This document shows positions 3,344 through 48,613 of a DNA stretch of 56,098 nucleotides, in pieces (positions within the stretch are counted from its first letter, which is position 1; each line of letters begins with the position of its first letter). The notes below the pieces were generated by a model. That model made no database searches and was not told the DNA's origin. It saw nothing but the letters and a program-made list of their open reading frames with translations. A program made the translations under genes and the position numbers. Origin of the DNA: a virus (taxonomy: Duplodnaviria > Caudoviricetes); IMG/VR virus record IMGVR_UViG_3300048625_000523, positions 1 to 56,098 of that record; one strand, written 5' to 3'.

Positions 3344-3834
3344 AGCGGGTAGACTTTCAATGCGGTTTGGAAAGCTTCAAATTCGCTGGCAGACAATTCC
3401 ATGGTTGTGATGTAGTCTGTGTAGCGCCAATAACACACCTCAACTTCTTTGTTGCCCAATTGCCTTTCTCGGCAACAATGTACAATGCCATCCAGTTTGT
3501 CGGCCAGCGTCAAGATTCTGTGTTCTGCTGCGGACAACACAGGTTCTGACAATCCATGCTTTTGCAGAAATTCTTGCTCCAGTTTGGCGTATCCTTCGGA
3601 CACCCCCAGAGCCCTCTTCACAGGTGCTGGAGCGTCTCCCGTTGCCTGTTCTGCGGTGTCGTGCATCAACGCTGCTTTCAACAACGCTGTGGAACACTCT
3701 TCGCCCGCGAGCAACAACACCCACCAGGCCACGTTGTGAGAGTGCTCTGCAACTGTCTGCTGGACAACCGTGTCCAGCGCGTGGAACCGCTTTACCCTGC
3801 CACCCCTGTAAAATGCCAACACCTGTTCAAGCAT
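3340..3834 (-). CDS. HD-domain phosphohydrolase (YfbR-like 5'-deoxynucleotidase)
   Basis: VKRFH, TVAEHS, ALMHDTAE, GDAPAPVK and ADKLD motifs. Confidence 0.85.
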   Translation of the reverse strand: MLEQVLAFYRGGRVKRFHALDTVVQQTVAEHSHNVAWWVLLLAGEECSTALLKAALMHDTAEQATGDAPAPVKRALGVSEGYAKLEQEFLQKHGLSEPVLSAAEHRILTLADKLDGIVHCCRERQLGNKEVEVCYWRYTDYITTMELSASEFEAFQTALKVYPL

Positions 3835-4834
3835 TTGAACTCTCCTTCAAAAGTCTGCGAGCCAACCATTCATAACACGCCTGCCGCCACGCAGGATCGA
3901 CAATATTGTTCGCAGCGTCCAACGCACGAAGATCCTTCGATTGCCAGAGCTGCCACGCCTGATACATGGGCCAGGCAGTGTCTGCGAATACAGCATTATA
4001 GCACGCACGCGATCCACGCATCTCAGAAATGTTGAACCCTTTCCTGAATGCCAATTCCAGTTCTGCGTCAAACGTGGCGGGGTTTGAAACAAGCTCAAGA
4101 TTTGCAGCGGTCTCGAGCTTATGGATGGTCGGATCTGCTTTGAGGTGTTCAATGAACTTGCGAACCCCAGGATTGTCCGGGTACAAATGGTAGTTGAACG
4201 AAGTTTGTTCATACCACCCAACATCCGCCCTCAGTTGTGCGGCCACGTATTCCTGCAGCATGGTCATGTGTACGAAATTCGCCCCATACGCACCCCAAAT
4301 AATGTCATTGGAGCGATTACATACTTGCATGTTCAAACATCCGCCACGCAGGTCGAAGTAGATGTGTGTGTTGCACGGCACATCCTTTGCACCTTCAAGC
4401 CTTTGTAAATCCCAGAATGGTGACCACATCGACAGCACTGCTCTGCGGGATGTAGGATCTCTGCGCAATTCGCTGATCAGTTGCGGCAGTTGATCGAACC
4501 CAAGTTTGTGTCTCCACCGATTGCCGTATGCACCATGCAGCGTCTTGTTGTCATCTGAGAATTCGCGCATTCGAGGATTGAATTGCGCCAAGAACTCCAC
4601 GTCACATCTGCCCGCAAGCATCCACAATCCTTCAAAGAAGTGGAAGAACGGATTTGCGTCTCGCACAGGGCACAACAACACTCTGTCTCTGGGGTCTGCA
4701 TATCGTGTGGATGCAGGCTCTTGCAGGGTGAGTGTAGTCCCGTTGCGGCTTGTGGACAACACACCCTCCGAAAGCAGCAAGCGCACTCCGGAAACCACAG
4801 CTTCACCAACAGAATAGCATTCAATTGTTTTCAT
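3827..4834 (-). CDS. Thymidylate synthase homolog, probable dUMP hydroxymethylase
   Basis: GAYGNRWR, DPTSRRAVL, catalytic DVPCN, NRSNDIIWGAYGAN, NYHLY. Lies within the modification cluster. SD GGAGGAG. Confidence 0.85.
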   Translation of the reverse strand: MKTIECYSVGEAVVSGVRLLLSEGVLSTSRNGTTLTLQEPASTRYADPRDRVLLCPVRDANPFFHFFEGLWMLAGRCDVEFLAQFNPRMREFSDDNKTLHGAYGNRWRHKLGFDQLPQLISELRRDPTSRRAVLSMWSPFWDLQRLEGAKDVPCNTHIYFDLRGGCLNMQVCNRSNDIIWGAYGANFVHMTMLQEYVAAQLRADVGWYEQTSFNYHLYPDNPGVRKFIEHLKADPTIHKLETAANLELVSNPATFDAELELAFRKGFNISEMRGSRACYNAVFADTAWPMYQAWQLWQSKDLRALDAANNIVDPAWRQACYEWLARRLLKESSNA

Positions 4835-5748
4835 TTCAACTCCTCCGCAGGTACATACTTGGTTCGCGAATATCCTCGCGAATACTTGTAAAACTCGCAC
4901 AAACAGTTTTGCGCATCTTGAGCGTGCAACGGCTCCGAAAATAGATCTTTATGCGGGTGGGGGCCTGATTGGTCTGTGAGCAACACTCTGTTCACGTGTT
5001 TTTGCAACGCAAGCAAGCTGTCTTTCCACGCAGCTTCTTGCCATTGATGTTCCGGCTCATTGCCCATCACAACATTCAATCCTTTGCGAGAGCCTGGGCC
5101 ACTCAGTGCAAAGGTTTGCCAATCAGGTGCATCTTTGAGGTACCTTGTGTACTTCAGGTCGGCCACAACCTGTGCTGCCATGAACCCACCCCACCCATGG
5201 CCTGAGGCCAAAGCGTCTGCCACAGCTTGGCAAGTACCTTCTGTCAAAGCTTCTTGCACCCTGAATTTTTGCGCTCCGTGTACGACGCTGTGCAACACCC
5301 TGTGCGCAGTGAATGCAGGTTTGTCTCTCGGCCCGTCATAGTGGGCACCCCAATTGCAATTCAGCATGTAAGCTCCGGTGTATATCTTTTCTCCACGCCC
5401 TTGCCGCACAATCATCGCCCACCGCAGCTTGTCCAAATCCCAATTGTCCAGCTTCATATACGGCCAAGCCTTCTTGTCTTGCAACAATTCAGCCAGAGTC
5501 TCCGGATGGTTGATCTGTCTTGCCAAACAAAGCATCACCCACAAATTGGGATGGTCTGCAAAAGGTTCTCGTATGTAGTTTCGAACCCACTTTGTGACTG
5601 TGTCATCTTCACGCCGCACATTGCAAAACCGGTACGTATTGAACACGGTGTCTTGAGACCAAGGTCTTGGGGCTCCAGCATCCTTCAGCAGTCGGATCTT
5701 TTCTCGTGAGATTATAAATGTAAGAAAATCAAACAGTTTCGGGAACAT
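4831..5748 (-). CDS. aGPT-Pplase1 / 5-hmdU DNA kinase helical-domain family protein
   Basis: RPWSQDTVFNTYRFCNVRREDD, GGFMAAQVVADLKY, GPGSRKGL, QNCLCEFYKY. Confidence 0.85.
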   Translation of the reverse strand: MFPKLFDFLTFIISREKIRLLKDAGAPRPWSQDTVFNTYRFCNVRREDDTVTKWVRNYIREPFADHPNLWVMLCLARQINHPETLAELLQDKKAWPYMKLDNWDLDKLRWAMIVRQGRGEKIYTGAYMLNCNWGAHYDGPRDKPAFTAHRVLHSVVHGAQKFRVQEALTEGTCQAVADALASGHGWGGFMAAQVVADLKYTRYLKDAPDWQTFALSGPGSRKGLNVVMGNEPEHQWQEAAWKDSLLALQKHVNRVLLTDQSGPHPHKDLFSEPLHAQDAQNCLCEFYKYSRGYSRTKYVPAEELK

Positions 5749-6205
5749 GTTTTCTCAACTCCATTTTGATGTACGGTCTCGGACGGTTTTTGGGGCCGAC
5801 AGCTGTCAAGCCAATTCTGCTGAACCCCAGTTTGTCGTAGAAGGCGACAGCCTCTGTGTTACGCTCCTCAACTCCGAGCTGTACAACGCCATGCGGCGAA
5901 GTGTTCAAAGCCCACTCTACCAAAGCTCTACCCACCCCCTTGCCTGTGGTGTCCGGACACACCCCCAGATAGTGGATGACACTGACGGGTCTGGACTTCA
6001 AAACCAGGTGCCGCACATACACAAACCCACAGAGCTTTGATCCCGATGTTGCAACCCCTACGAAGCCTTTTAAATACAAATTTTGAATCTCTTCGCGGAT
6101 GTAATTGAGCGTAGCAAAGTCCTTTGTGTACTTGGACAGCTTAGCCACGTCACACACAGTGGGGTCTTCAGCCAGCACCGCTTTTCGCACGCGAACTTTA
6201 GCCAT
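5729..6205 (-). CDS. GNAT acetyltransferase
   Basis: Acetyl-CoA motif V..DTTGKGVGRALV and NTEAVAFYDKLGF. Confidence 0.9.
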   Translation of the reverse strand: MAKVRVRKAVLAEDPTVCDVAKLSKYTKDFATLNYIREEIQNLYLKGFVGVATSGSKLCGFVYVRHLVLKSRPVSVIHYLGVCPDTTGKGVGRALVEWALNTSPHGVVQLGVEERNTEAVAFYDKLGFSRIGLTAVGPKNRPRPYIKMELRKHVPETV

Positions 6206-6800
6206 GTCTCGGCTCACGAGGCAAATCTACGTCGAACAGCGCCAACACCTCGCGCACAGGCCGTTTGTGGCTGACCCACACACAGTTGCCGTTGTGTTCT
6301 GAGGCAATTTTGTGGTGTGATTGCCAAGCAGCTTTGTGCTTTTGTTCTGTGTTGCGCGGATTGAGCGGTTCGAACTTGCCTTTCAACGCTCTGCGCTGTG
6401 TCACACGCTCCAAACATAGCTCGATGGGTGTGTCCAATGTGGCCCAGACAGGATTGTGCCCCATTTCGGAGAGGCTTGACATTGCGCGCCCAACTGACCC
6501 GTACCCGCCTGAAATGAGAAGACCTTCAAATAAAATGTGGCCTTGCGACGCGTAGCGCACCAACAACTCGGGCACAATGTTCTTGTAGTCTGTAATGCCG
6601 TCACAACCCCCACATTGCGTGGCGTACCCACCGAACAAGAAGAGCGGGACGTTGTGCGGCAGGTGTATTTTGTACACGCGAGGAGTGGCCCGCGAGCCTG
6701 CACACTCTACCACACTGCTGGGGAATAGTTTCAGCAGCGTGTGTGCTACAGTACTCTTGCCAGCTCCGGACGTGCCGCGCAGATTGACGATTGTGTGCAT
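6198..6800 (-). CDS. P-loop kinase (5-hmdU DNA kinase-like)
   Basis: Walker A LRGTSGAGKST, GGY...CGGCDGI, ILFEGL, LDTPIELCLERVTQRR. Confidence 0.8.
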   Translation of the reverse strand: MHTIVNLRGTSGAGKSTVAHTLLKLFPSSVVECAGSRATPRVYKIHLPHNVPLFLFGGYATQCGGCDGITDYKNIVPELLVRYASQGHILFEGLLISGGYGSVGRAMSSLSEMGHNPVWATLDTPIELCLERVTQRRALKGKFEPLNPRNTEQKHKAAWQSHHKIASEHNGNCVWVSHKRPVREVLALFDVDLPREPRHG

Positions 6801-6801
6801 G

Positions 6802-6984
6802 TCACAAGCCTTTCTCATTGAGGGTTGTGTTATGGGTTCCATACAAGACCATCATTCGCAGACGCTCTCTGGCCTTGTGCCTGGCAATCAGTTGTCTGCA
6901 GTTTCGCAAAAGCACATATTCACGCACAGCGAACACTGCCAAAATTGTCAGTGCCAAACTGCAACATCCTGTAAAAATTGACAT
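6802..6984 (-). CDS. Small membrane-anchored hypothetical protein
   Basis: Fills the gap between adjacent genes exactly. Hydrophobic N-terminus followed by a basic tail. Confidence 0.45.
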   Translation of the reverse strand: MSIFTGCCSLALTILAVFAVREYVLLRNCRQLIARHKARERLRMMVLYGTHNTTLNEKGL

Positions 6985-6985
6985 G

Positions 6986-7801
6986 TTACAGAGCCTCCTC
7001 TGCAAATTGTACCGCCTGTGCTGCAGCCAACAGCGTGCCATTCTTCGCCCCGCCTGTGGAAACCCACGTGTTCGGAGTCACCCGGCGAAAGTACCCCGCC
7101 TTGTGACCTTCGACGTATGGGCGAACACCCACTGTCAGCTTGCCCCCGACCAATCCAAACAAGTCTCGAGCTCGTTCAAGGCTCGCAGCTCCTCGGGTCT
7201 GTGTGTTCCAAGACTTCTCCACGAGAGCAGTCCCGTCTCCAAACCACACCGACCCTTTCTTGCCTCCAATGCGCAGTGCAACTGCTTGTCGATATGGGGC
7301 ATAGACATGCAACCGATCCACAGACCAATCTGGTGGGTTCTTGTACCGCACTGAAGCTCCCCACAATCCACGAATATTGGGCATATCTTCAATCAATTCT
7401 TGAGACCACACACCTGCAGCAACAAGCACCCGCCCTTTCAAAATTGTGCCTGAGGCGAGCGTAACTTTGCCGTCTGACACAGACAATACTTGCTCTTGTA
7501 CGTCTGCAGGAATTAGGATCTTGTCGGGGTTGATGTGTTGCACTGGCAATTTGACGAGCAAATTGGTTTGCAATACACGATCTTCCACGTCGTACAAATC
7601 ACGCAACAACTGGAAGCCGTTCTCCTTCTGTTCGTCTGTCAAAGACGCCAGCCAGCTGGGCTTCAACACACATCCTGAGGCTTTAGAAGCGGCATTGGGG
7701 TGTCCTGCATCCACCACGGTCACAGAGGCTCCTCGAGCCCTGCAAAGCGTCGCAGCCATGCTGCCAAACAAGCCAGCCCCTATGATGACTATCGGTTTCA
7801 T
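6986..7801 (-). CDS. FAD-dependent oxidoreductase (DAO/glycine oxidase-like), probable flavin-dependent lyase of base modification
   Basis: IIGAGLFGS Rossmann motif, ASKASG, VLVAAGVWS, VGVRPY, TGGAKNG. Confidence 0.85.
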   Translation of the reverse strand: MKPIVIIGAGLFGSMAATLCRARGASVTVVDAGHPNAASKASGCVLKPSWLASLTDEQKENGFQLLRDLYDVEDRVLQTNLLVKLPVQHINPDKILIPADVQEQVLSVSDGKVTLASGTILKGRVLVAAGVWSQELIEDMPNIRGLWGASVRYKNPPDWSVDRLHVYAPYRQAVALRIGGKKGSVWFGDGTALVEKSWNTQTRGAASLERARDLFGLVGGKLTVGVRPYVEGHKAGYFRRVTPNTWVSTGGAKNGTLLAAAQAVQFAEEAL

Positions 7802-7822
7802 TCTCAGCTCCTGCAGTGAGTG

Positions 7823-8641
7823 TCAAACTTCTGGCGGCATGCATCGCAACAGTTGTTGTGCCAGGTCTCCCCAGCCCACGAGTGCATGCCGTATCTCTGA
7901 TATGTCTTTACCGACTTGGTAATGGCCTTTTACATGACTCTTGTACTTGCAAAAAATGGATTCCACCTCTTGAACATTGACCAGTCGGTCTCTGGCAGGG
8001 GGAGCCTTCATTCGCTTCGATCGAAAGTATTGGATCTCAGCTTCCACGGTTTCTCGAAGTTCGTCGTCTGTGATGCTAGTTTTCCAATCACCTGTGCGAA
8101 CAAGAGCTGCACCTTGACGCGGGTCTTTGTAAATGCCAAGATGGCAGTCGTCAAAATTCACGTCGTACCCCAGCACCCGCTCAGCCATGTCTGCTATCTT
8201 GAATGCAATCCACGGGCCGAAGCCTCTGTGTCGTTGTGCACAAGCTGCCACATTGTTGTATGTTGTCTGCTTGTCAAGCATGAAAGCAGGGTCTCCCACA
8301 ATCGCCCGAACAGCTGCGCTGGGAGTCTTGTACCGTTGCGTGAGTTCTTCCACTGCGTTGATTGCCTGATCTCCTCGGAAGTGTCTGCGCTCTGCGCCTC
8401 TGGGCCAGGGCTTGGGGTCTCCTAGATTGACAGCAGCTTCCAACATCTTCGCCCAATACTTCTTCGGATTTTTGATCTCGCCAAACTTGGCTGCCACCCC
8501 CAAGTGGTAGAAGCACCAATATGCCAGGCACGTACGATCCAGGGTCTCTGGATCCAGCGCTGCTTTGTGCAAAGCAACATAGACTGGATCCAGATCCTGC
8601 GTACGCAGCAAAGCTTCTCCAAACTCGCGTACGGAGAGCAT
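7823..8641 (-). CDS. Amino acid:DNA transferase (aGPT-Pplase2 family)
   Basis: TQDLDPVY, YWCFYH, WPRGAERRHFRG, GFGPWIAFKIADMAER, QEVESIFCKYKSH. Confidence 0.85.
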   Translation of the reverse strand: MLSVREFGEALLRTQDLDPVYVALHKAALDPETLDRTCLAYWCFYHLGVAAKFGEIKNPKKYWAKMLEAAVNLGDPKPWPRGAERRHFRGDQAINAVEELTQRYKTPSAAVRAIVGDPAFMLDKQTTYNNVAACAQRHRGFGPWIAFKIADMAERVLGYDVNFDDCHLGIYKDPRQGAALVRTGDWKTSITDDELRETVEAEIQYFRSKRMKAPPARDRLVNVQEVESIFCKYKSHVKGHYQVGKDISEIRHALVGWGDLAQQLLRCMPPEV

Positions 8642-8642
8642 G

Positions 8643-9299
8643 TCAGTCTTTGACCAAAATGCCGTTGGAAGTGCAGAAATAGAAGTAGCGCGTGTAGCGA
8701 GCATCTTCCTGCCCCGGATGTGCGGTCTTGACAGCAGCACACAACGATTCGCGGGTGAAAGACTTCATCTTTTGGGCTACGGCAACGAAGTCCTTGATGA
8801 AGCCGCGCTTCACTGCAGACACATCACCAATCTTGTACGTCTCCGGCTTTTCCGCTTTGGCAGCGGGTGCGGCTTTGGCAGCGGGTGCGGCTTTGGCAGC
8901 GGGTGCGGCTTTGGCAGCGGGTGCGGCTTTGGCAGCGGGTGCGGCTTTGGCAGCGGGTGCGGCTTTGGCAGCGGGTGCGGCTTTGGCCGGGGTCTTGGAA
9001 GGGGTTGCAACAGCCATTTCAGATTCTCCAGATTCTGCCAACAAGGGGAAAAAGCTCAAGAGGTGTTGGCGAACCTCAGGAGCCATAAAGACACCACGAA
9101 TTTTGAAACAAAGTGCTGCCGCTCTATCTACTGCGTAGTCCAGGTAGGGCACCCATTTGTTGTCGAACTCGGCAACAGCCGACGTGGCAAGATGAAACCC
9201 AGTGCTCAACATAGGTACGAAAGTCACAGTGGTTTTTGTTCTCGCGACGACGATGCAAGTATTTGAACGGTGTTTGCAGACATATGGCAGTGCAGACAT
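8643..9299 (-). CDS. Putative DNA-binding protein with (AAPAAK)7 linker and C-terminal winged-helix-like domain
   Basis: Histone H1/AlgP-like repeat. C-terminal domain resembles the ORF at 27985-28218. Confidence 0.6.
   Translation of the reverse strand: MSALPYVCKHRSNTCIVVARTKTTVTFVPMLSTGFHLATSAVAEFDNKWVPYLDYAVDRAAALCFKIRGVFMAPEVRQHLLSFFPLLAESGESEMAVATPSKTPAKAAPAAKAAPAAKAAPAAKAAPAAKAAPAAKAAPAAKAAPAAKAEKPETYKIGDVSAVKRGFIKDFVAVAQKMKSFTRESLCAAVKTAHPGQEDARYTRYFYFCTSNGILVKD
8854..8987. repeat. Perfect 18-bp tandem repeat, 7.4 copies
   Basis: (GCTTTGGCAGCGGGTGCG)7 + GCTTTGGC. Confidence 0.98.
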
Positions 9300-9346: not shown

Positions 9347-10825
9347 TTATTCTAGAAGTGGCAAGGTCTTAGCACGACGTTTCTGAAGTGCTGTGAAAAA
9401 ATCTCGCTGCTCTCGGTCTCTTCGACGCACACACCAACGCACAGCCTCTTCCACGGTGTCCTTCGCAACAAGCATGTAGCAGTGCAAGTGCTTGGCCTCA
9501 TTGCCTTGTCGCCGCAGGCGTCGATTCAATTGGTCTGTCAGCTCAAAGTCTGGGGTCATTGTGAACCACAACAAGTGCGACGCGTGAGACTTCTGCATGT
9601 TCAACCCATGCCCTGCAGATTGTGGATGCACCCACAACCACTGCAATTCTCCTGCGTTCCACAACCGTTCCAACTCCAGAGAACGTTTGGTGCTCACCCC
9701 ACCACCAATGTAAGGCACATTGTCTTTGCCGAAGTATTCTTGTGCTCGCATTAAGTCGTGTGTGAAATTGTAAGCCACAAGCAGTTGTTGCCCTTGCAAC
9801 TCTTCGAGGAGTTCTTCAACCAATACCAGCTTCTCTTTGTGCACTTCTATGTATTCACGTGCTGTGCGCTTGCGAGCTGTTGGTAGCAAGGCTGCAACTT
9901 CGTCGTCTGCATCTGTTACAAACACTGCACCACTCGCAACTTGGCGCAATTTCATGGACTTCACACCACTGTTTGCAGCAGACACAACTTTGTCGTCTAT
10001 CTCCGCGAAAAGTTGATCTTCCAATTTGTCATAGATTCTGCGAGCCTCTGGCGGGAGTTCAAACGACAGGATGTGGTCTAGTTGTTGTGGCAAGTCCAGA
10101 TAGTCGTCTGCGTTCATGCGCAACGCAAGTGGTCGCACCCGCTCGTAAATGTGTTGTTCTGCCCCGTCTTTCAGAACCCATACATGCTCATTAATGTTGG
10201 AGAAGTACGAGAATCTGAAGTACGTTATGTACTTGCCCAAGGCCTTGCCCATGTCCAACATGTAGCATTGCCCAAACAACCCCATCAACCCATTAGCGGC
10301 AGGGGAACCTGTCAAACCCCATCGGTGTTGAAATTTTACAAGCAACGGCTTCAATAGTTTGTAACGGTCTGTGTTCGGGTGTTTGAATTTTGACAATTCG
10401 TCGATTATCAGCGTGTCAATTTTACCCTGCTTCAAAAGCCTTTGCAAATGGCCTTTAGACACCAACCACTTCAACCCCTCAGGATTTATCACATACACAT
10501 CAGCCTCTTCTTGTACTGTCGCCTCTTTGTGCGGCCCGTGCAACACCACAACTTTGATGCCATGGAAGTCTGTCCATTCTTGCTGTTCAGCAGGCCATAC
10601 GCTGCGGGCTGGGCGCAGCGGTGCGACAACCAGAGCTCCTTTGAAAGAGTCATGCTTCTTTTTCAGTGCAATGGCAGCGTAGGTGATGCTTGTCTTGCCC
10701 AACCCTGGGTCAAGGAACAGCGCGGCTTCGTCGTGCTCGAGTAGAAACTTCACAGCTCTTTTCTGGTAGGCGTGCGGTGTCCAACGCTTGCTGGATTGTT
10801 TGGATTGCCACTTCTTTGTTGTCAT
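9347..10825 (-). CDS. SNF2-like superfamily 2 helicase
   Basis: PHAYQ, LDPGLGKT, IIDELS, GLTGSP, SAGHGLNMQ, RLRRQG. Start codon uncertain. Confidence 0.9.
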   Translation of the reverse strand: MTTKKWQSKQSSKRWTPHAYQKRAVKFLLEHDEAALFLDPGLGKTSITYAAIALKKKHDSFKGALVVAPLRPARSVWPAEQQEWTDFHGIKVVVLHGPHKEATVQEEADVYVINPEGLKWLVSKGHLQRLLKQGKIDTLIIDELSKFKHPNTDRYKLLKPLLVKFQHRWGLTGSPAANGLMGLFGQCYMLDMGKALGKYITYFRFSYFSNINEHVWVLKDGAEQHIYERVRPLALRMNADDYLDLPQQLDHILSFELPPEARRIYDKLEDQLFAEIDDKVVSAANSGVKSMKLRQVASGAVFVTDADDEVAALLPTARKRTAREYIEVHKEKLVLVEELLEELQGQQLLVAYNFTHDLMRAQEYFGKDNVPYIGGGVSTKRSLELERLWNAGELQWLWVHPQSAGHGLNMQKSHASHLLWFTMTPDFELTDQLNRRLRRQGNEAKHLHCYMLVAKDTVEEAVRWCVRRRDREQRDFFTALQKRRAKTLPLLE

Positions 10826-11063
10826 ACACATAAACCTCATACCCAAGTTTCTGCAGTGCTCTGTGCACAAGCTTCTGGCGCTCTGTGGGCTCTCCCCCAG
10901 GCCGTTTGAATTCTATGAACACAGCCTTGCCTTGTGGCAGAAAGAATACTCTGTCCGGCCATCCAACGTTGCCCGACACGTTCAATTTTAGAGAGATTAC
11001 ACCCTGCAGCGCAGCCCACCGCACCACAGGATCTTCAACATCTCTTTTCTCTAATATTGACAT
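10710..11063 (-). CDS. VRR-NUC domain nuclease
   Basis: GWPDR...FIEFKRPGG...Q motif. Confidence 0.88.
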   Translation of the reverse strand: MSILEKRDVEDPVVRWAALQGVISLKLNVSGNVGWPDRVFFLPQGKAVFIEFKRPGGEPTERQKLVHRALQKLGYEVYVYDNKEVAIQTIQQALDTARLPEKSCEVSTRARRSRAVP

Positions 11064-15173: not shown

Positions 15174-15574
15174 GACACTTTGCGCAGAGACACTTGCGGT
15201 ATAAGCATCTTCTCTACGCCCGGCACCTTGACATTGGAAGCCCACAATGCCTTGATAGATGCGTCACCCACTCGTCGTTGCAACAAACTCCACGCACCAG
15301 GATCCTTCTTGACAGACTTGACGATGTAGTCGTACAACGCATCCCAGTCGGTCACAGACACAACTTCTTTGGTTTCGATTGTTGCATTGGCAAACTTGCC
15401 TGTGATGCCAAGTGCTTGTGACTTGGGCAGATTCTGAATCAAGTGTTCGCGCAAAGAAGATTCTCGCGCCTCAAGTTCTTGCACCTGCTTAGACAGCGCC
15501 AGTCGTTCTTGGCGTGTGGTGTACAACAAATCGGCACACACAGCCAATTGCTTGGGAATTTTGAATTCAGCCAT
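15170..15574 (-). CDS. Conserved phage hypothetical protein
   Basis: Coiled coil followed by V.DWDALY.YI and LLQRRV. Strong SD. Confidence 0.7.
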   Translation of the reverse strand: MAEFKIPKQLAVCADLLYTTRQERLALSKQVQELEARESSLREHLIQNLPKSQALGITGKFANATIETKEVVSVTDWDALYDYIVKSVKKDPGAWSLLQRRVGDASIKALWASNVKVPGVEKMLIPQVSLRKVS

Positions 15575-15654: not shown

Positions 15655-16515
15655 CTACTTCTTGATCGTAAAACCTGCTGCTGCCGGGTGCCCACCACCT
15701 CCAAATTGTTCCGCAATCTTCGCGACATTCACTCCGCCACTGCGGCCTCGTAGTGAGTACTTGCGAGTGGTATTGTCTACATCATAGTAACTCACAGAGA
15801 ATGCTGACAGCGGGTACATGTCGAGCAGTGCATGACCCACTTCAGAAATTAGCTCCCCTGTGTTGCAATGCGGCACTCGATGCGCCCCCAGTTCGCACAT
15901 GTAGCTGCGCTGAAGAATGCGGTCAATCCGCATGGCGTCTTCTTTCAAGAACAAGGCCCCTGTACGTTCAAGAACCGGAGTGTCTGTCACAGCCCAATCA
16001 AAATATTCCAATGATTGTGGGGTTGCAAATAGCGCACGACACACTTCCTTTGTGAAGGGCAATTCAAACTTCCACAGGTCTCTGTCTTCGATGTGGTTGA
16101 TCAAAGCTGGCGCAGCGGTTTCGCGATGGAAGAACTTCCACGCCAACATAGCTCCTGAATGTCGAGGATCCAACTCAACCCACATTGCATCCAGAAGTTC
16201 TTGTGCTCGGGGCTCCAGCTTGCGGATTGCACTGTCGTGATGGTCTAACAATACCATCGCCCCTGCTCTTGCAGACATTGTCAGCAACGTGTCTGCGTCG
16301 AACGAAAAATCTACCACTGCAACCAAATCAGTGGGCAATATCGTCTCCAATGACGGCGCTTCTCCGTACGTGCAGGGCAACCCAACGTATTGAATATTGT
16401 TCTGCTTACACCAACGCACTGCAGCCCAGTACGCCCCGAAGCCGTCCAGACAATCTGCGTGGTAGTATATAACTGCACGAGTGATTTCACTTGTTGCCAG
16501 GCGTTGAATGCTCAT
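15655..16515 (-). CDS. DHH/DHHA1 phosphoesterase
   Basis: YHADCLDG, VDFS, LDHH, IEDRDLW, SLR, FGGGGHPAAAGF. Confidence 0.92.
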   Translation of the reverse strand: MSIQRLATSEITRAVIYYHADCLDGFGAYWAAVRWCKQNNIQYVGLPCTYGEAPSLETILPTDLVAVVDFSFDADTLLTMSARAGAMVLLDHHDSAIRKLEPRAQELLDAMWVELDPRHSGAMLAWKFFHRETAAPALINHIEDRDLWKFELPFTKEVCRALFATPQSLEYFDWAVTDTPVLERTGALFLKEDAMRIDRILQRSYMCELGAHRVPHCNTGELISEVGHALLDMYPLSAFSVSYYDVDNTTRKYSLRGRSGGVNVAKIAEQFGGGGHPAAAGFTIKK

Positions 16516-16901: not shown

Positions 16902-17115
16902 CTCCTCGTGCTACGATGTTGGCGATCTCTGTGGTCATGAATCTCGCAACCTCTGACACAAGACTTTGAACCTCCGTTGCATCCACACGGGCCATGCTCT
17001 CTGCAGCCTTCATCGCCAACTGCACTGCAGCGCCGAACACCACAAATGCAGGAGCCCCTTCACAATTCTGTTCAAACTTCGACAACAACTCTGCGCCATC
17101 TTCGACAATGTTCAT
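16879..17115 (-). CDS. Hypothetical protein
   Basis: SD GGAGGAG before MNIVEDG. Confidence 0.55.
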   Translation of the reverse strand: MNIVEDGAELLSKFEQNCEGAPAFVVFGAAVQLAMKAAESMARVDATEVQSLVSEVARFMTTEIANIVARGGVENATH

Positions 17116-17417
17116 TTCACAGCTCCTCCGCAAGAATCACAAGGCACTTCTACAGTTTTAAACCCTCGCTTACGCGAGAGCTTCCCCAATCCGCCACACA
17201 CAACACACACACTCTTCCACAATCCGCTGTGTGCGTCGTACAACTTACGCGCTGTCGGATCTAGCAACACGGCGCAAATTTGATTCACTTCGACCATCCT
17301 CTGCGCATCCCCATGATCTCGGTCTGGGTGTAATTGTCCTGCCAACACTTTGCGCCGTTGGCGAATCTCTTCCGAAGAGGCTGTCTCAGCCACTCCGAGT
17401 CGTTCGTAGTAATTCAT
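17112..17417 (-). CDS. J-domain (DnaJ-like) protein with Zn-finger
   Basis: MNYYERLGV...LHPDR...VLLDP..RKLYD, plus CVVCGGLG and CDSCGG. Confidence 0.85.
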   Translation of the reverse strand: MNYYERLGVAETASSEEIRQRRKVLAGQLHPDRDHGDAQRMVEVNQICAVLLDPTARKLYDAHSGLWKSVCVVCGGLGKLSRKRGFKTVEVPCDSCGGAVK

Positions 17418-17572
17418 AGCTCGCTCGCAAGAACCAACACCCACAGAGGCCACAACAACACACTGCGGACACCACCCCACAAGCTGATTCGATCTTCGAA
17501 CATAGCAGCTGCGATAAACGTCACGCAACAACCAACGTAGATGTAAATGACACTCCAAACAGGCCAAGGCAT
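17414..17572 (-). CDS. Small membrane protein, 52 aa (not in the ORF track)
   Basis: MPWPVWSVIYIYVGCCVTFIAAAMFEDRISLWGGVRSVLLWPLWVLVLASEL. SD GAGGAG. ATGA overlap with the J-domain gene. Confidence 0.65.
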   Translation of the reverse strand: MPWPVWSVIYIYVGCCVTFIAAAMFEDRISLWGGVRSVLLWPLWVLVLASEL

Positions 17573-17602
17573 TTTCAACTCCTCGATTTCAGACGGTACT
17601 TT

Positions 17603-17631
17603 ATCTTACTCCAACTTTACTGATTTGGCAA
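17603..17631 (-). promoter_or_regulatory. Sigma70-like promoter
   Basis: TTGCCA-N17-TAAGAT. Confidence 0.7.
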
Positions 17632-19656
17632 CTACCATTTTGACTTTGACGCGAGCGGATGATGTTCGTCGTAGTGGTTGCACGCTTCCTTCCACGCAGC
17701 TGAGCCTCTCCAATATCCGTCATTGCGAATCGCATATACCATAATCATCGTACCATCCGCCGTGCGCAGTCGGTTCCCAGCACAAGGTGGGTTGAATCCT
17801 GCCCTCTTCAACTCGCGCGACATTGTATTGAGCGTGCAGCGCGAATTGCCCAACGGGTCGTACAGTGCCAACAATTCTTTGGGTGTGAACAGGTCTCCAG
17901 TCAGTCCAGCGCGGTGCAGCATGGAAGTGGTGTTGATGCGCAGTTCTTGCACCCATGCAGCGATATCACTCTTGTTCGCCGATTGCATGTGCATCTTGCT
18001 GATCGTCATTGGTGCGGGCTCCGTGGGGTCGAATTTGCTGGTGTCCACGGTCAGCAAGTGGTGCCACAAAGCGGATATAAATTCGTCATCATTTAGTGCT
18101 GCAACAGCTCGTTTGCGCAAAGACACAGACAACTTACCGCTCAAAACTTCGTGGATGAAGAACCTTCGGTCTTGGTCGTCCATTGTCAGTGCGTCAGGAT
18201 CGTTGGACGTGATGTAGTAGTTGATAGTGTCCAGTATGGAGTATGATGGTATGAACTTCGGATCTAGTCGTATGTACTTCTGCGTGACCATTGTCATCAA
18301 TCGCCTCATGAACCTGCGGTCTCCACGTGCTGTAATATCGTCAGCCAATGCAAACTGCTTGTTCTCAGCCCACTGGAACCGTCCATCGTCCAAGTCTTGA
18401 TCCTTCAGCTCTGTGCTGTTCTTGCCGTAAATCCGACACACCATACTTCCGATCAACGTCTTGCCTGTGCCGTGCTCCGGCCCCCACACCAACACAGCAG
18501 TGTTCAATTTGTATCCGGGGTTCTGCAGCGGATAGGCCAGCCATTGTTCGAACCAATTGCGCGATTCATCCTGCTTCAGGAACAAGTGGTCCAATAACTC
18601 GTGCCAAACTGAACAATCACCTTGTCTCGGTGCGTCTATACCCCACCCACTCCATGTATTGAGAAGCCCTTGTTGTGTGACCGTGGGTTCTCCAGGCGCG
18701 AAGGCCACGCCACGCACTTCACTGCGATGCTCCCACTTCAACCACTCCGTGGCTGCAGACTTCTTGGTCAGCGTTACTTCGCCACGCTTGTTCACAGTTT
18801 GTTCCCAGTGTGCAATGTTGGCAAAGGCGTGGTTTGTAAATGATTGTGGGGGCAGCTTTTGTTTCAGTTCATGATCCCACACGAATCCTGGGTCTCTGAC
18901 ATACACCACTCTTTGGTTGAGCGCATGCAGTGCTTGCGATGGGCTGAACTCGACAGCACCCAATAACACTGCATCCAATTCTTCCGCACCGTACAAGAGT
19001 ATGAAGTCGTCCAACCCAACCTTGCTGACTTCTTCATTTGCGGGCAACCGCGCCAACATTACTCGGGCTCCCAGCTCTAGCAGTCGTTTAGACAACACAC
19101 CTTCGGCCCGCACAATGTCGGGATTCGTGGCTGCGTCGGAGTCGAACACAATGTATACCATGCGTCCATCCCATGCAAATTGTTGCAAGGAAGGTAGCAC
19201 ATGCAACTCATTCTTTTTGGACATGAAACACCAAACCCCGCCCAATCCCAGCGTGGGGTACCCAAACTTGGTCGCGCAAGCAGCTTTCAACTCACCTTCA
19301 GTGATAATCAGTGGTACTGAAGGGTCTTGAGCGATGGCAACCCAATCAACGAATGGTGCAAAATACACTTCATTGATCGTGGCCGAAGGTTGTCCGTATC
19401 TCAGGGGCTTGGGTTGTGTGATTTTATCGAAACCTTTGCGGGTGTCTGCAAGGTACCGGTACCGATAGAACTTCGTGACTTTGCCATCCAGGGCGAAGTA
19501 TGGTATTTTGAAGCCTGCTGCGTATGCAGGCAATTTGAGAGACTTTTTGGCTTCAGCTTCTTGAAGCAGCTCCAGCTTGAGCAATTTTGCATCAGACAAA
19601 TCAAGCAGCGAACCACCCAGCTTATTCTCAAACAGCGTTTCTAAGGGTTCTGTCAT
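17632..19656 (-). CDS. Primase-helicase (Toprim/DUF3854-like plus SF3/D5-like helicase)
   Basis: IITEGELKA, VFDSD, KVGLDDF. LAYPLQNPG and Walker A GPEHGTGKT. Confidence 0.9.
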   Translation of the reverse strand: MTEPLETLFENKLGGSLLDLSDAKLLKLELLQEAEAKKSLKLPAYAAGFKIPYFALDGKVTKFYRYRYLADTRKGFDKITQPKPLRYGQPSATINEVYFAPFVDWVAIAQDPSVPLIITEGELKAACATKFGYPTLGLGGVWCFMSKKNELHVLPSLQQFAWDGRMVYIVFDSDAATNPDIVRAEGVLSKRLLELGARVMLARLPANEEVSKVGLDDFILLYGAEELDAVLLGAVEFSPSQALHALNQRVVYVRDPGFVWDHELKQKLPPQSFTNHAFANIAHWEQTVNKRGEVTLTKKSAATEWLKWEHRSEVRGVAFAPGEPTVTQQGLLNTWSGWGIDAPRQGDCSVWHELLDHLFLKQDESRNWFEQWLAYPLQNPGYKLNTAVLVWGPEHGTGKTLIGSMVCRIYGKNSTELKDQDLDDGRFQWAENKQFALADDITARGDRRFMRRLMTMVTQKYIRLDPKFIPSYSILDTINYYITSNDPDALTMDDQDRRFFIHEVLSGKLSVSLRKRAVAALNDDEFISALWHHLLTVDTSKFDPTEPAPMTISKMHMQSANKSDIAAWVQELRINTTSMLHRAGLTGDLFTPKELLALYDPLGNSRCTLNTMSRELKRAGFNPPCAGNRLRTADGTMIMVYAIRNDGYWRGSAAWKEACNHYDEHHPLASKSKW

Positions 19657-19689
19657 AATTCAACGTTGTGACGGAGTTGAAGACGAGGC

Positions 19690-19767
19690 GTCGCCTCGCG
19701 CTACATAGAGTGAGGAGGAGCTGAACCCGACTCACTCGCAGGCCGTCTCCTGGTAGCGCGAGGCGAC
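19690..19767 (-). ncRNA. Putative structured small RNA/leader (three-way junction)
   Basis: Perfect 15-bp outer stem (19690-19704/19753-19767), 7-bp stem (19708-14/19731-37) and 4-bp stem (19739-42/19749-52). Its 5' end coincides with the predicted start site of the adjacent promoter. Confidence 0.65.
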
Positions 19768-19772
19768 AATGT

Positions 19773-19801
19773 ATTGTGTCTCAGACACAAGTAAAAGGCA
19801 A
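19773..19801 (-). promoter_or_regulatory. Sigma70-like promoter for the ncRNA/primase
   Basis: TTGCCT-N17-CACAAT. Confidence 0.6.
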
Positions 19802-19803
19802 TC

Positions 19804-20265
19804 TCAAAACGCAACCCCCATGCGCAGCTGCGTTACACTCACAGTGCCGTTGCCAATGGCTGGAACCCACAACACATCCCAACGTCCTTTGCCAATTTGA
19901 CCACTCAGCACTGCACCACCAAGCATGTTGCAGGTCTTGAGTTGTGCGCACGTGTAGCCTGTAGCATATACACCCCACACCCCGGCTGAGAAGGTTCCAA
20001 GCTTCAGAGGCTTGTAAGCTCCGCCCATGTGCATGGAACCGCCTCCATAGCTGTTCGTGCCGAAGCCCACGTCGGTGGAAAGTGTTTCGTTGAAGTCGTG
20101 TTGCCAACTGATGCGGTGCGGCTGTTGCCACGGCTCACACTTCTTGGCGTACGAAGATTGACATTCGGAAGTGTGTTTTGTGTATGCGTCCAACATGATT
20201 CTATCTTCTGCAACACACACCCCACTGCTCAACAACATTGCAACACACAACCATCTTACTTGCAT
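19804..20265 (-). CDS. Secreted, probably outer-membrane beta-barrel protein (PagP-like)
   Basis: Signal peptide, alternating beta-strand pattern, YTKH and TNSYG motifs, terminal Phe. Confidence 0.55.
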   Translation of the reverse strand: MQVRWLCVAMLLSSGVCVAEDRIMLDAYTKHTSECQSSYAKKCEPWQQPHRISWQHDFNETLSTDVGFGTNSYGGGSMHMGGAYKPLKLGTFSAGVWGVYATGYTCAQLKTCNMLGGAVLSGQIGKGRWDVLWVPAIGNGTVSVTQLRMGVAF

Positions 20266-25295: not shown

Positions 25296-25568
25296 TCAAA
25301 CTCCGTAGTATTCAATCTCACGCAGCGCTGCGTTGTACGCAGCCTGCCACCAGTACTGCGCCACTGCAGCTCGCTCTGTGCTCGTGAGCGCATCGTAGTA
25401 CTTGTCCGCACCCAGAGCTTCTTCAATCCTGTGGGGCCGCCACGGGAAGTACTGCGACGTTGCACACCCCACTTCCGCGTCTGCTCGCTTCTCCGCCTCC
25501 GCGTGGAAGGTCTCCGCCTCTTCGCAAGCCCTGTGGTGCGCGTTCTCTGCCCGTTCCAGGAAGTCCAT
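25296..25568 (-). CDS. Hypothetical protein
   Basis: Start MDFLERA abuts the upstream stop codon. Confidence 0.55.
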   Translation of the reverse strand: MDFLERAENAHHRACEEAETFHAEAEKRADAEVGCATSQYFPWRPHRIEEALGADKYYDALTSTERAAVAQYWWQAAYNAALREIEYYGV

Positions 25569-25921
25569 CACACACCCCCTTTCCGCGCCGCAGCAATCCG
25601 CTGCTCTAGGCTCTTCAACTCCTCCTCGAAGGTGTGGTCGATGCACTGTTCGTCCAACTCATTCACAGCCCGAAACGCCACATCCACCGCTGCATCCGCA
25701 ATCTGCTGCAGCTCCTCAGCAACCCCTCTTGCAGCAGCAATGCGCACTTCTAACTCCGGGGGCAGCCCTACTTGCCTGCTGCGCTCAGCGTCGCGGTACG
25801 CAAGGGCTTCCGCCTTCGTAAAAAACACGCGTGCATCCGTGGAAAACTCACTGCGGTACGGCAGGTGTGTCTCAATGTAGCCGTCAGCCGACGACACATA
25901 GATAGTGCGATATTCAACCAT
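25568..25921 (-). CDS. Hypothetical early protein
   Basis: Strong SD GAGGAG. First gene after the promoter at 25968-25996. Confidence 0.65.
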   Translation of the reverse strand: MVEYRTIYVSSADGYIETHLPYRSEFSTDARVFFTKAEALAYRDAERSRQVGLPPELEVRIAAARGVAEELQQIADAAVDVAFRAVNELDEQCIDHTFEEELKSLEQRIAAARKGGV

Positions 25922-26027: not shown

Positions 26028-27017
26028 TCACGCAGAGAGGGCCAACTGCACGGCAGCCGCTTTGCGCCCAGCTCCAGCCCCGTACCATGCTTGGTACAAG
26101 CTGTGATCCACCGTCTTGCGCGTCCTGGCGGCAGCCAAGTCATAATCAACAGTCTCCGTCACGGCGTTCAACCACCCCCAAGCCGTGCCTGCCACTCCGG
26201 CGAGCTCCGCGCCTTTGCCCGCGCCGTCGAAGAGTGTGAGGATCTTCGTGTAAGCGGGGGACGCCTCAACCTTCCGAGCTGCGTCGGTTCCACGGCCTGC
26301 ACCGGGGGCGAGCAGTTGCAGCGTCATGTCGGCAGCTGCGAGGTCGGAAACACGCTTCTTTGCAAGGTCGCGAGCTGTGGAGATGAACTCTTTGAAGTTC
26401 CCTCGAGCCACACCCAGGGAGTCCTTCACTGCTGCCGGGTTGAACGTGGAGCGGTGCCCAATCTTCACGCCTTGCAGCTGTCCAGGTTGCATCGCCATCG
26501 ACAACGTATTGTTGCACACTACACGCACCGTCGTGAAGCGTGCATCCGTGGCGGTGGATCCGTCTGCACTGGTAGAAAGCAACAAGTACCCACCCACCAC
26601 ATCTTTGGGGGAGATAATTTTGGCCGACTCATTGATGCGAGCCAAAGCCCAGAACCGCTTGCCCTGGAACAACGTGCCTGCGGTCTCGAGTGTGAAGCCA
26701 TTATCCACCACAAGGTCGCTGAAGAACTCCAGCACCTCGGCAGGTTGCACCACTTTATACATGTCGGACACAATGCCCAATCCCTCTCCGGTGTCGGAGC
26801 GGTGCAGCACGCGCTGATTGTCGAAGGTGCGCAGGCCTTCGGGGGTGCTGTATGCCACAGCGGAAGATTGGATGCTCCAATCGAACCGTGCGGCTTGGAT
26901 CCAGGTGGGGATGTCAGCACCTTCGGGCAATTGTTGGCCCAATTGGTGCCACGGTGTGGTTCCTACGTAAGCCATTTCAGCCTTGTTGTCTGCGCGGATG
27001 GTAAGTTCGTGTGCCAT
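26028..27017 (-). CDS. DUF932 family phage/plasmid protein
   Basis: MAHEL...MAYVG.TPWHQLG, YKVVQP, ETAGTL..GKRFWALA, TVRVVCNNTL, GTAWG.LNAVTE. Confidence 0.9.
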   Translation of the reverse strand: MAHELTIRADNKAEMAYVGTTPWHQLGQQLPEGADIPTWIQAARFDWSIQSSAVAYSTPEGLRTFDNQRVLHRSDTGEGLGIVSDMYKVVQPAEVLEFFSDLVVDNGFTLETAGTLFQGKRFWALARINESAKIISPKDVVGGYLLLSTSADGSTATDARFTTVRVVCNNTLSMAMQPGQLQGVKIGHRSTFNPAAVKDSLGVARGNFKEFISTARDLAKKRVSDLAAADMTLQLLAPGAGRGTDAARKVEASPAYTKILTLFDGAGKGAELAGVAGTAWGWLNAVTETVDYDLAAARTRKTVDHSLYQAWYGAGAGRKAAAVQLALSA

Positions 27018-30393: not shown

Positions 30394-30407
30394 CAGAGGA
30401 GTTGAGA

Positions 30408-47996: not shown

Positions 47997-48359
47997 ATGG
48001 CGATGGATCAAGTTCAAACGACATCACTACCAACTGTTGGTGAAATTTCTGCCGCAACAGATCTTGCTTCCGTTCAAAAGCTTTTGGTTCGTGTTGAAAC
48101 ATTCAAGGCACAGCAATCGGCGCTTGAAGCAGAACATATGGGTAAGGCGGCAGAGAGCACAAATCATCTTGCGCAGACAGAATCCAAGAATTGGGATCGC
48201 AATTCGATGTGCACCCTGCTTGCGGCCTGCATCGCTGCACGCAAGCAGAACATGACGACCGTGACAAAAGAGCCAACTTTGAACGACGTGATTGACGATT
48301 CGCTTTACATGCTAGACAGAGCATTGGCGGGGATTGATTCACGGATGTCGAAGCGATGA
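47997..48359 (+). CDS. Hypothetical protein
   Basis: Co-oriented, helical composition. Confidence 0.55.
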   Translation: MAMDQVQTTSLPTVGEISAATDLASVQKLLVRVETFKAQQSALEAEHMGKAAESTNHLAQTESKNWDRNSMCTLLAACIAARKQNMTTVTKEPTLNDVIDDSLYMLDRALAGIDSRMSKR

Positions 48360-48613
48360 TAGTAGGATTCTCCACCGCTCTCATGGTTGCAGAAGCCGGA
48401 GAAGAGGCCTACTTCGAGGATTTCGTGCTGACTGAAAAAGGCATTTTCAAGAACGGCGAAAAGCTGGACTCGATCAGCTGGGATTTGATCGGCGCACCGT
48501 GGGATGTGGAAGATTTTGAGGCGGTTCGGCTGCATCAATTGATGCGTGGCCGAAAGCGAGACCTTGCAAGAGCTGCAAAGGTTGTAAAGTTCATCAACTT
48601 CATAGGGCGATAA
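48356..48613 (+). CDS. Hypothetical protein
   Basis: ATGA overlap. Confidence 0.5.
   Translation: MIVGFSTALMVAEAGEEAYFEDFVLTEKGIFKNGEKLDSISWDLIGAPWDVEDFEAVRLHQLMRGRKRDLARAAKVVKFINFIGR

Follow-up and report, generated by a model that had tools for sequence, protein, structure and literature searches.

A structured element precedes the primase-helicase gene

The sequence analysed here, which we refer to as the window, is the whole of IMG/VR record IMGVR_UViG_3300048625_000523 (56,098 bp; completeness estimate 94%), and the phage that it represents is probably a virulent siphophage. On the minus strand, a 147-nucleotide (nt) gap separates a small signal-peptide open reading frame (ORF; 19804-20265) from the primase-helicase gene, and within this gap lies a 78-nt element that ends 34 nt before the primase-helicase start (Table 1). 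The first-pass annotation of this DNA, made from the letters alone, had described the element as a three-way-junction small RNA with two loops antisense to motifs in the leaders of several early genes, made from an operon leader in the manner of C4 of phage P1 and CI of phage P4.

Read as minus-strand RNA, the element comprises a long closing stem (P1), hairpin 1, a one-base linker, hairpin 2 and a three-base joiner, each lying where that annotation had placed it. The minimum free energy (MFE) and centroid structures given by RNAfold coincide in this three-way junction, and its energy of -57.0 kcal/mol compares with -38.9 +/- 3.9 kcal/mol in 200 shuffled sequences (z = -4.60), none of which is as stable; folding of the whole primase leader gives the same structure (z = -4.44). 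Twelve inverted repeats of 13 nt or longer were detected in the window; the arms of the element form the one pair among them that is 100% complementary (15 nt, with the arms 48 nt apart). Other classes of element were considered and rejected. ARAGORN reports 0 tRNA or tmRNA genes in the window, and a reading as a terminator fails on the lack of a U run after the stem and on its absence from the list of terminator-like sites. A search of Rfam, proposed with the original description, returned no family at its gathering score, and small search spaces examined at E up to 10 gave none either, the matches to mir-275, COG3860 and snoR35 being far under their thresholds.

The letters of the promoter proposed earlier are also present, as -35-like and -10-like hexamers that would place the start of transcription at the first base of the closing stem; 5' processing may therefore be unnecessary. 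Hexamers of the type TTGCC[ACT] can be read as -35 elements before 27017, 25921, 17572, 9299 and 23856 as well, and the promoter scan lists one of these (17631-17603). A perfect palindrome overlapping the promoter spacer and the -10-like hexamer looks like an operator and may act as one; no other copy of its half-site in the window has a partner.

Complements of both loops are found at gene starts

The loop of hairpin 2 is complementary to an extended Shine-Dalgarno (SD) motif, box 2, and the loop of hairpin 1 to the shorter word CCGUC(U), box 1. The DNA form of box 2, GAGGAGYTGA, occurs eight times in the window compared with 0.17 +/- 0.40 expected, and 0 of 100 shuffles reach eight copies. 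Six of the eight end 1-5 nt 5' of the starts at 4834, 15574, 17572, 25921 and 27017 on the minus strand and 30408 on the plus strand; one of the other two is intragenic (25615) and one is the complement of the element itself. Partial matches precede 7801, 9299 and 17115. When SD starts on the primase strand are counted instead, the 5 nt after GGAG pair with the loop-2 flank at 8 of 59 (0.38 expected, p = 4.6e-9). The leader contains a second, unstructured copy resembling an antisense ribosome-binding site (RBS) sequence, the flank of which matches 4 of the 59 starts (0.15 expected, p = 1.9e-5). Complementarity reaches a limit of about 11 nt, and the complement of the full 16-nt loop has no other match with fewer than three mismatches.

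Box 1 is located 5' of box 2 in the leaders of 27017, 25921, 17572, 9299 and 5748, UGUCU precedes box 2 at 15574, and the primase leader carries CCGUC as well. CCGTC lies within 40 nt upstream at 4 of 8 motif sites compared with 7 of 62 among all SD starts (hypergeometric p = 0.0037). All of the positions, complete or partial, that the first-pass annotation had listed for the two motifs were found again, including the six full copies of box 2 at gene starts, the box 1 sites at 9299, 17572, 25921, 27017 and the primase (19670-74), and the UGUCU variant. Its observation that the pairings are not colinear is also borne out, loop 1 preceding loop 2 in the element and box 1 preceding box 2 in the targets. 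The target leaders are weakly folded (z from -0.96 to +1.29), and the boxes should therefore be accessible.

The element in related phages

An alignment of 30 primase homologues led to 80 IMG/VR loci, designated by names of the form L003; with the primase protein alone as query no IMG/VR loci were found, and the exact pattern of both loops has no match in viral contigs. Genes downstream of the primase are syntenic among these relatives and those upstream are not. We built a covariance model from the single sequence of the window's element and searched 506 kb with it. The best match outside the window, at 2778-2865 of L003, lies directly upstream of the L003 primase and has the same three helices made of different letters. 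Through this match, two words conserved in the closest relatives were recognised as the loops of hairpins 1 and 2; the loops are conserved and the stems that carry them vary. The hairpin-1 loop word, taken from L003 by coordinate, is present in nine loci, and helices P1, P2 and P3 were detected in L002, L003, L006, L007, L010 and L012.

Pairs in the hairpin-1 helix were counted in seven distinct relatives, the window being left out with its shorter loop misplaced in the alignment. The helix is 96.4% paired compared with 56.9% in shuffles, 0 of 500 of which reach the observed value; register-shifted controls give 21-64%, and all four pairs vary on both sides. Four of the 28 cells are G-U, and several G-U pairs also occur in P3. 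Because of these G-U pairs and a model score that is three-fold higher on the sense strand (112 bits) than on the antisense strand (35 bits), an RNA of primase sense is favoured. Of six closing stems, each taken as a contiguous helix, five exceed what shuffled flanks give (window, 16 bp, p < 0.001; L006, 9 bp, p = 0.002; L007, p = 0.005; L003, p = 0.013; L002, p = 0.026), with a compensatory change from A-U to C-G between L006 and L007. A -10-like hexamer (TATACT, TATAAT, TATAGT or CACAAT) can be made out by eye in the relatives, within a few nt of the 5' foot of the closing stem.

In L016 and L006 the RNAfold structure has loop 2 paired in cis with the primase RBS, and the primase's own RBS would be a main target in the relatives. 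Watson-Crick stems of at least 12 bp number five upstream of primases compared with 1.66 expected, a two- to five-fold enrichment on small counts. Choosing structures by total MFE was biased to long windows, and a MAFFT alignment of whole elements was structurally inconsistent and was not used. In three distant relatives, iteron-like direct and inverted repeats and AT-rich DNA lie 5' of the primase (L044 2619-2719, L050 2694-2740 and L051 2697-2826, in locus coordinates); these repeats, which are distinct from the element of the window, may be replication origins.

Loop and start sequences change together between phages

Whether loops and leader motifs co-vary in related phages had been set out beforehand as a test of the first-pass annotation. 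We examined the whole contigs of 15 relatives together with the window (16 genomes). For each CUCC within the 450 nt upstream of the primase, its five 5'-flanking bases were compared with the five bases that follow GGAG at SD starts, and the starts able to pair were counted. Complementarity of loop and starts is phage-specific. The window's loop, UUCAG-CUCC, goes with starts of the form GGAG-YUGAR; in the L012 group a loop GUCGG-CUCC goes with GGAG-YYGAC, and in L002 a loop GGUGG-CUCC goes with GGAG-YYRCC. The counts for the window's UUCAG flank are those given above; the GUCGG flank matches 7 of 58 starts in L012 (0.9 expected, p = 3.2e-5) and 2 of 11 in L016 (0.17 expected, p = 0.012), and the GGUGG flank matches 5 of 25 in L002 (0.77 expected, p = 9e-4). 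Cognate counts are marginal in L007 (2 of 29), L025 (2 of 29) and L013 (1 of 26).

In a cross matrix of flanks and starts, the window's starts match the window flank ten times and other flanks once or twice, the L002 starts match their own flank five times and the others not at all, and the L012 starts never match the window flank. Relative to the GUCGG class, compensated changes are seen at two sites of the window flank (G-C to U-A and G-C to A-U) and at two other sites of the L002 flank (U-A to G-C and C-G to U-A). Loop 1 and box 1 change in step as well: the pair is GACGG and CCGUC in the window, GUUACGG and CCGUAAC in most relatives (loop AGUUACGG), and, by eye, GUUGCG and CGCAAC in L016. 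With the additional class found in cultured phages (below) there are four matched loop-2 classes, and the anticipated co-variation is thus observed for both loops.

The gene right after the primase bears the class-specific word in four phages (GAGGAGUUGAA in the window, CAGGAGUCGACA in L007, GGAGCUGACGA in L016 and AGGAGCUACC in L002). Six of the seven sense-strand sites of L012 lie directly before an ATG, that of the primase included, and four of these six have the complement of loop 1 upstream, as do two of four sites in L002. A tally of RBS extensions in the 8-kb loci gave no dominant word. The contig of L018 (G009) has a start-site word, GGAG-YAGCACC-ATG or GGAGCACAGCC-ATG, at at least eight genes, and the complement of this word was not found in its primase leader.

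A version of the element in two cultured relatives

Stenotrophomonas phage AXL3 and Pseudoxanthomonas phage PW916 (L129) are the only cultured relatives found by DNA search, and both have a window-like genome layout. Upstream of the primase in each there is a 96-nt element with 13 perfect closing pairs; the two elements differ by one compensated stem pair (U-A to C-G), and their interiors are identical. A mostly unpaired stretch, CCUCCUCAG, has the complement CUGAGGAG, which in AXL3 lies before 7 of the 39 starts annotated on the minus strand and before none of the 26 on the plus strand. This is the top word in a Watson-Crick 8-mer test, being present in 9 of 54 start regions in AXL3 and 11 of 57 in PW916 compared with 3 of 600 in other genomes. 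The phage-specific extension (CUGA) is here on the 5' side of the SD sequence, and the two phages therefore constitute a fourth specificity class.

At 18146 of the PW916 record an in-frame GTG, preceded by GCUGAGGAG, lies 48 nt upstream of the annotated primase ATG. The PW916 primase, and probably the AXL3 primase as well, may start at this GTG, in which case the primase's own start would be a target. Passages of the AXL3 paper report the phage as virulent and its DNA as resistant to most restriction enzymes, and in those passages the words 'promoter' and 'ribosom' occur 0 times (PMC7504290).

A leader RNA proposed to occlude ribosome-binding sites

The interpretation that we favour, with a probability of about 0.6, is that the leader RNA is an antisense, RBS-occluding regulator of the C4/CI kind. 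Transcription would start from the sigma-70-like promoter at the base of the 15-bp closing stem, and the RNA would adopt the three-way junction predicted by folding and, for P1 and hairpin 1, backed by comparison. Loop 2, composed of the anti-SD sequence CUCCUC and a phage-specific 5-nt flank, would pair with GAGGAG-YUGAR at about ten starts, and loop 1 with CCGUC(U) located 2-25 nt upstream in about half of the target leaders. The complementarity of loops and boxes is observed, and the proposed pairing is supported by co-variation between phages. Occupancy of the SD would block 30S binding, and early, replication and DNA-hypermodification genes would form a regulon that is translated less; this might serve as feedback on the translation of early and replication genes, or end it at a set time, after transcription of the replication operon. 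To reach the targets at 27017, 25921 and 30408 on the plus strand, the RNA would have to act in trans, as the leader itself or as a fragment of about 80 nt processed from it.

Several observations weigh against this interpretation. No intrinsic terminator was found after the element, where the stem is followed by GCCUCGUCUUCAAC and none of the 20 listed terminator-like sites is located; we therefore assign the element to the 5' terminus of the primase leader. A discrete, trans-acting repressor RNA would need processing out of that leader. The original proposal of a two-loop, C4/CI-like antisense RNA made from an operon leader is supported in its core by the co-variation, and gives way at this point to an element at the head of the primase mRNA. 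The predicted promoter agrees with only 8 of the 12 bases of the sigma-70 consensus and is missing from the output of the promoter scan. The window primase itself has no SD, and its match to loop 2 is only 6 nt (-8.3 kcal/mol). The crossed order of the two pairings is a further difficulty. GGAG-YUGA of the window is identical at seven of eight positions to GGAGGUGA, which we take to be the ideal extended SD, and loop 2 resembles what is presumably the 16S tail with one base changed; since YUGA resembles this extended SD, part of the enrichment could reflect pairing with the ribosome.

The comparative evidence has its own limits. Run on the small loci of eight relatives, the single-sequence model produced an alignment for L003 (E = 8.6e-4), a weak one for L012 (E = 0.3) and none for the others. 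The hairpin-2 helix of the relatives is within a flexible-boundary null (p 0.07-0.45) except in L012, so that hairpin 2 of the relatives would be assigned mainly from the conserved loop and by analogy. Stems of at least 11 bp with G-U pairs allowed are unenriched, 30 of 823 lying in the 4.5% of sequence upstream of primases. The loop/RBS signal is absent in 7 of the 16 genomes (L018, L020, L022, L017, L014, L015 and L004) and is not significant in L003 and L040; more distant relatives are without it. Duplex energies overlap (cognate mean -16.7 kcal/mol, non-cognate -13.7 kcal/mol; the cognate is the best in its column in 3 of 10), and in a G-U-permissive 9-mer scan the reversed control equals or exceeds the real maximum in 9 of 16 genomes. 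The co-variation tests were framed after the pattern had been noticed.

Alternative explanations

It is unlikely that the element is purely a leader structure acting in cis, which would protect the mRNA, provide an RNase III-type site or tune the primase only, with the other matches arising as by-products of a CUCC-rich loop. Such a role would fit the location of the element at the predicted 5' end, close to the primase start and followed by no terminator, a position that is kept in the relatives, as well as the primase RBS being the best target in those relatives (with the cis pairing predicted in L016 and L006) and the window primase start lying within a small hairpin. It leaves unexplained the flank matches in the window and in L012, which are seen with the cognate flank only, the class-specific motif after the primase in four phages, and the second box matching loop 1; moreover, pairing in cis could not reach 27017 and 25921, which are located 5' of the promoter, or 30408, which is encoded on the opposite strand.

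We consider it rather improbable that chance and shared ancestry account for the matches, each phage having a favoured RBS cassette, through 16S pairing or duplication, and a loop that resembles its complement without pairing to it. The relatives' RBS extensions do not appear to fit the 16S tail: YYGAC, YYRCC and the 5'-side CUGA cannot all fit one such tail, yet each fits its own loop. That argument has to be set beside the near-identity of the window motif to the extended SD, the post hoc nature of the tests, the absence of signal in several relatives and the relatedness of phages within one class, which makes their counts non-independent. Inverted duplication is contradicted by the crossed order, because an inverted copy of the leader would reverse the order of the boxes, and conservation of the loops on variable stems also speaks against this account.

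Very improbable is an element acting as DNA, whether a hairpin or cruciform at or near an origin or a site for primase-helicase loading or priming: it would suit a place directly upstream of the primase-helicase gene, and iteron-like repeats with AT-rich DNA occupy the same position in L044, L050 and L051, but the helix G-U pairs would be A-C mismatches on the opposite strand, the model strongly prefers the sense strand, the window element has no iterons or AT-rich stretch, and neither a -10-like box at a fixed distance nor loops matched to gene starts would be expected of an origin.

A broader version of the antisense, RBS-occluding regulator can be put forward, tentatively. Each lineage of these apparently virulent siphophages with hypermodified DNA might have a private RBS 'address' in its early and replication genes, together with a leader loop that mimics the 16S tail (…UCA-G-CUCCU in the window, GAUCAC…CCUCCUCAG in AXL3) and is retuned to that address. 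On this view the element would gate translation genome-wide in a programmable manner and would be the RNA equivalent of RegA and RegB of T4, competing with ribosomes for an entire regulon and co-evolving with about ten starts simultaneously; we regard this as possible and rather doubtful.

Relationship to known regulators

The element is similar in several respects to C4 of phages P1 and P7 (RF01695). Their lengths are 78 nt and 77 nt respectively, both have a long closing helix with two internal hairpins, and C4 lies in the leader of the operon that it controls with its targets just downstream, as the element lies in the primase leader. In the P1 record, c4 (48343-48419, 77 nt) is 4 nt before a2 (48423-48429) and 33 nt before b2 (48452-48459), which ends 11 nt before the icd start (48470). 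Passages on C4 describe b' as occluding the RBS, a' as giving upstream specificity and RNase P as making the 5' end (PMC5320573). The RBS is thus paired by the loop of the second hairpin (b'), with a short upstream site adding specificity, and loop 2 here likewise complements the RBS.

There are also clear differences. The second specificity element of P1 C4, a', is a 7-nt joiner 3' of hairpin 2, and its hairpin 1 is a structural tetraloop, whereas in our element this part falls to the hairpin-1 loop and the joiner is 3 nt (UAU). The P1 targets a2 and b2 are colinear with b' followed by a', unlike the crossed order seen here. C4 controls icd and ant as part of temperate-phage immunity; the present element has about ten putative targets among early, replication and DNA-modification genes, and no lysogeny genes were found. 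With the Rfam C4 model (clan CL00128, gathering score 45 bits) there is no match in the whole window at the gathering score, and none at E <= 10 in 701 nt, in 111 nt or in the L003 element; the same model recovers P1 c4, used as the positive control, with 68.8 bits (E = 1.4e-13). Because the element falls short on model score and differs in where its second specificity determinant lies, we place it outside the C4 family; it appears to work like C4 and CI without being a member of Rfam C4.

CI of phage P4 also derives from the leader of a replication-gene operon. Passages on P4 describe CI as processed from the untranslated leader and as keeping replication genes down by pairing within the same transcripts, with premature termination at seqA and seqC in lysogeny (PMC4825925). 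The targets here overlap the SDs of many genes, which points to translation, unlike P4 CI. No sequence or model match to P4 CI was found. Phage-encoded shut-off of a set of messages is known from T4, in which the proteins RegA and RegB shut off early messages at translation initiation regions, RegB cutting in GGAG; these are proteins and are unrelated to the element in sequence or structure. We found no earlier description of the element in a non-exhaustive search of the literature, supplementary files excluded.

If the interpretation is correct, RBS-occluding antisense RNA from a leader, known from the immunity of the temperate phages P1, P7 and P4, would also govern some ten genes of virulent phages, a regulon spanning replication, thymidine hypermodification and a Tad2-like anti-defence gene. 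A regulator and its many starts that change together between lineages would represent a rare natural switch of specificity in a multi-target RNA. The motif would in addition help annotation by pointing to genuine start codons and to the leaders of operons in a group that is large and mostly uncultured (about 1,069 primase homologues at E <= 0.001), and these proposals are directly testable in AXL3 and PW916, two cultured phages that have their own version of it.

Genomic setting

The window has a rightward arm of late genes, from about 28.3 kb, and a leftward arm of early, replication and nucleotide-metabolism genes, from about 27.0 kb, of which the first gene encodes a DUF932 protein (26028-27017). 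The first early genes are among the candidate targets. Coordinates of the element, its candidate targets and associated genes are collected in Table 1.

Table 1. Positions in the window of the element, of the candidate target sites and of associated genes.
Feature	Coordinates	Strand	Remarks
Three-way-junction element, 78 nt	19767-19690	-	P1 closing stem, hairpin 1 and hairpin 2; RNAfold
P1, 15 perfect pairs	19767-19753 with 19704-19690	-	Read from sequence
Hairpin 1, CAGG[AGACGG]CCUG, 4 bp	19752-19739	-	Read from sequence
Loop 1, AGACGG	19748-19743	-	Complement of box 1, CCGUC(U)
Linker, C	19738	-	Between hairpins 1 and 2
Hairpin 2, GAGUGAG[UCGGGUUCAGCUCCUC]CUCACUC, 7 bp, 16-nt loop	19737-19708	-	Read from sequence
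Loop 2, UCGGGUUCAGCUCCUC	19730-19715	-	Complement of box 2, GAGGAGCUGAA (SD plus 5 nt)
Joiner, UAU	19707-19705	-	3' of hairpin 2
-35-like hexamer, TTGCCT	19801-19796	-	Read from sequence
-10-like hexamer, CACAAT	19778-19773	-	17 nt after the -35; predicted +1 at about 19767, the first P1 base
Perfect palindrome, TTGTGTC-TGA-GACACAA (7+3+7)	19790-19774	.	Overlaps promoter spacer and -10
Second, unstructured anti-RBS-like copy, UUCAACUCC	19681-19673	-	Plus-strand GGAGTTGAA at 19673; exact complement of the GGAGUUGAA variant
Box 1, CCGUC, in primase leader	19674-19670	-	In 11-nt loop of a small hairpin also holding the start-codon region
GUUGAA beside primase AUG, partial box 2	19664-19659	-	6 bp with loop 2; duplex -8.3 kcal/mol; no GGAG
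Leader of DUF932 gene (start 27017)	27055-27023	-	Box 1 CCGUC 27053-27049; box 2 GAGGAGCUGA 27032-27023
Leader of gene 25568-25921	25956-25925	-	Box 1 25954-25950; box 2 25934-25925
Leader of small ORF right after primase (start 17572)	17596-17575	-	Box 1 CCGUCU 17596-17591; box 2 GAGGAGUUGA 17584-17575
Box 2 GAGGAGCUGA before 15574 (conserved replication-module gene)	15586-15577	-	UGUCU two nt upstream
Box 1 CCGUCU and bulged box 2 GGAGAGCUGAA before 9299	9320-9300	-	Box 1 at 9320-9315
Box 2 variant AGGAGCUGAG before 7801 (FAD oxidoreductase)	7812-7802, approximate	-	
Box 1 CCGUC and box 2 variant GGAGUUGAG before 5748 (5-hmdU DNA kinase helical domain)	5785-5754, approximate	-	
Box 2 GAGGAGUUGA before 4834 (thymidylate-synthase-like gene)	4845-4836	-	
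Box 2 GAGGAGUUGA before 30408 (Tad2-like gene)	30396-30405	+	Only plus-strand site
Primase-helicase gene	17632-19656	-	674 amino acids; DUF3854 (Toprim-like) and DUF5906; leader carries the element
Thymidylate-synthase-like gene	3827-4834	-	Hypermodification set
5-hmdU DNA kinase helical domain gene	4831-5748	-	Hypermodification set
Acetyltransferase gene	5729-6217	-	Hypermodification set
Weak 5-hmdU kinase / P-loop match	6198-6842	-	Hypermodification set; under curated cut-off
FAD oxidoreductase gene	6986-7801	-	Hypermodification set
Amino acid:DNA transferase gene	7823-8740	-	Hypermodification set
Tad2-like gene, 91 amino acids	30408-30683	+	Thoeris anti-defense 2-like domain PF11195, E = 2.2e-27; directly after large terminase

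No integrase, repressor or antirepressor families were found among the 45 and 32 window proteins scanned. The leftward arm also encodes a DnaJ-domain protein (17112-17567), an SNF2-type helicase (9347-10870) and a DHH/DHHA1 phosphoesterase (15655-16515), and its segment at 3827-8740 is a thymidine-hypermodification gene set in which the box 2 motif is present at three starts (4834, 5748 and 7801).

The primase-helicase has no close relative, the best of the 1,069 homologues scored (E <= 0.001) having 57% identity. DNA contigs from four runs, belonging to three freshwater or sediment studies, one of which may have supplied the source sample, are identical to the window over 17500-20000, with zero differences.

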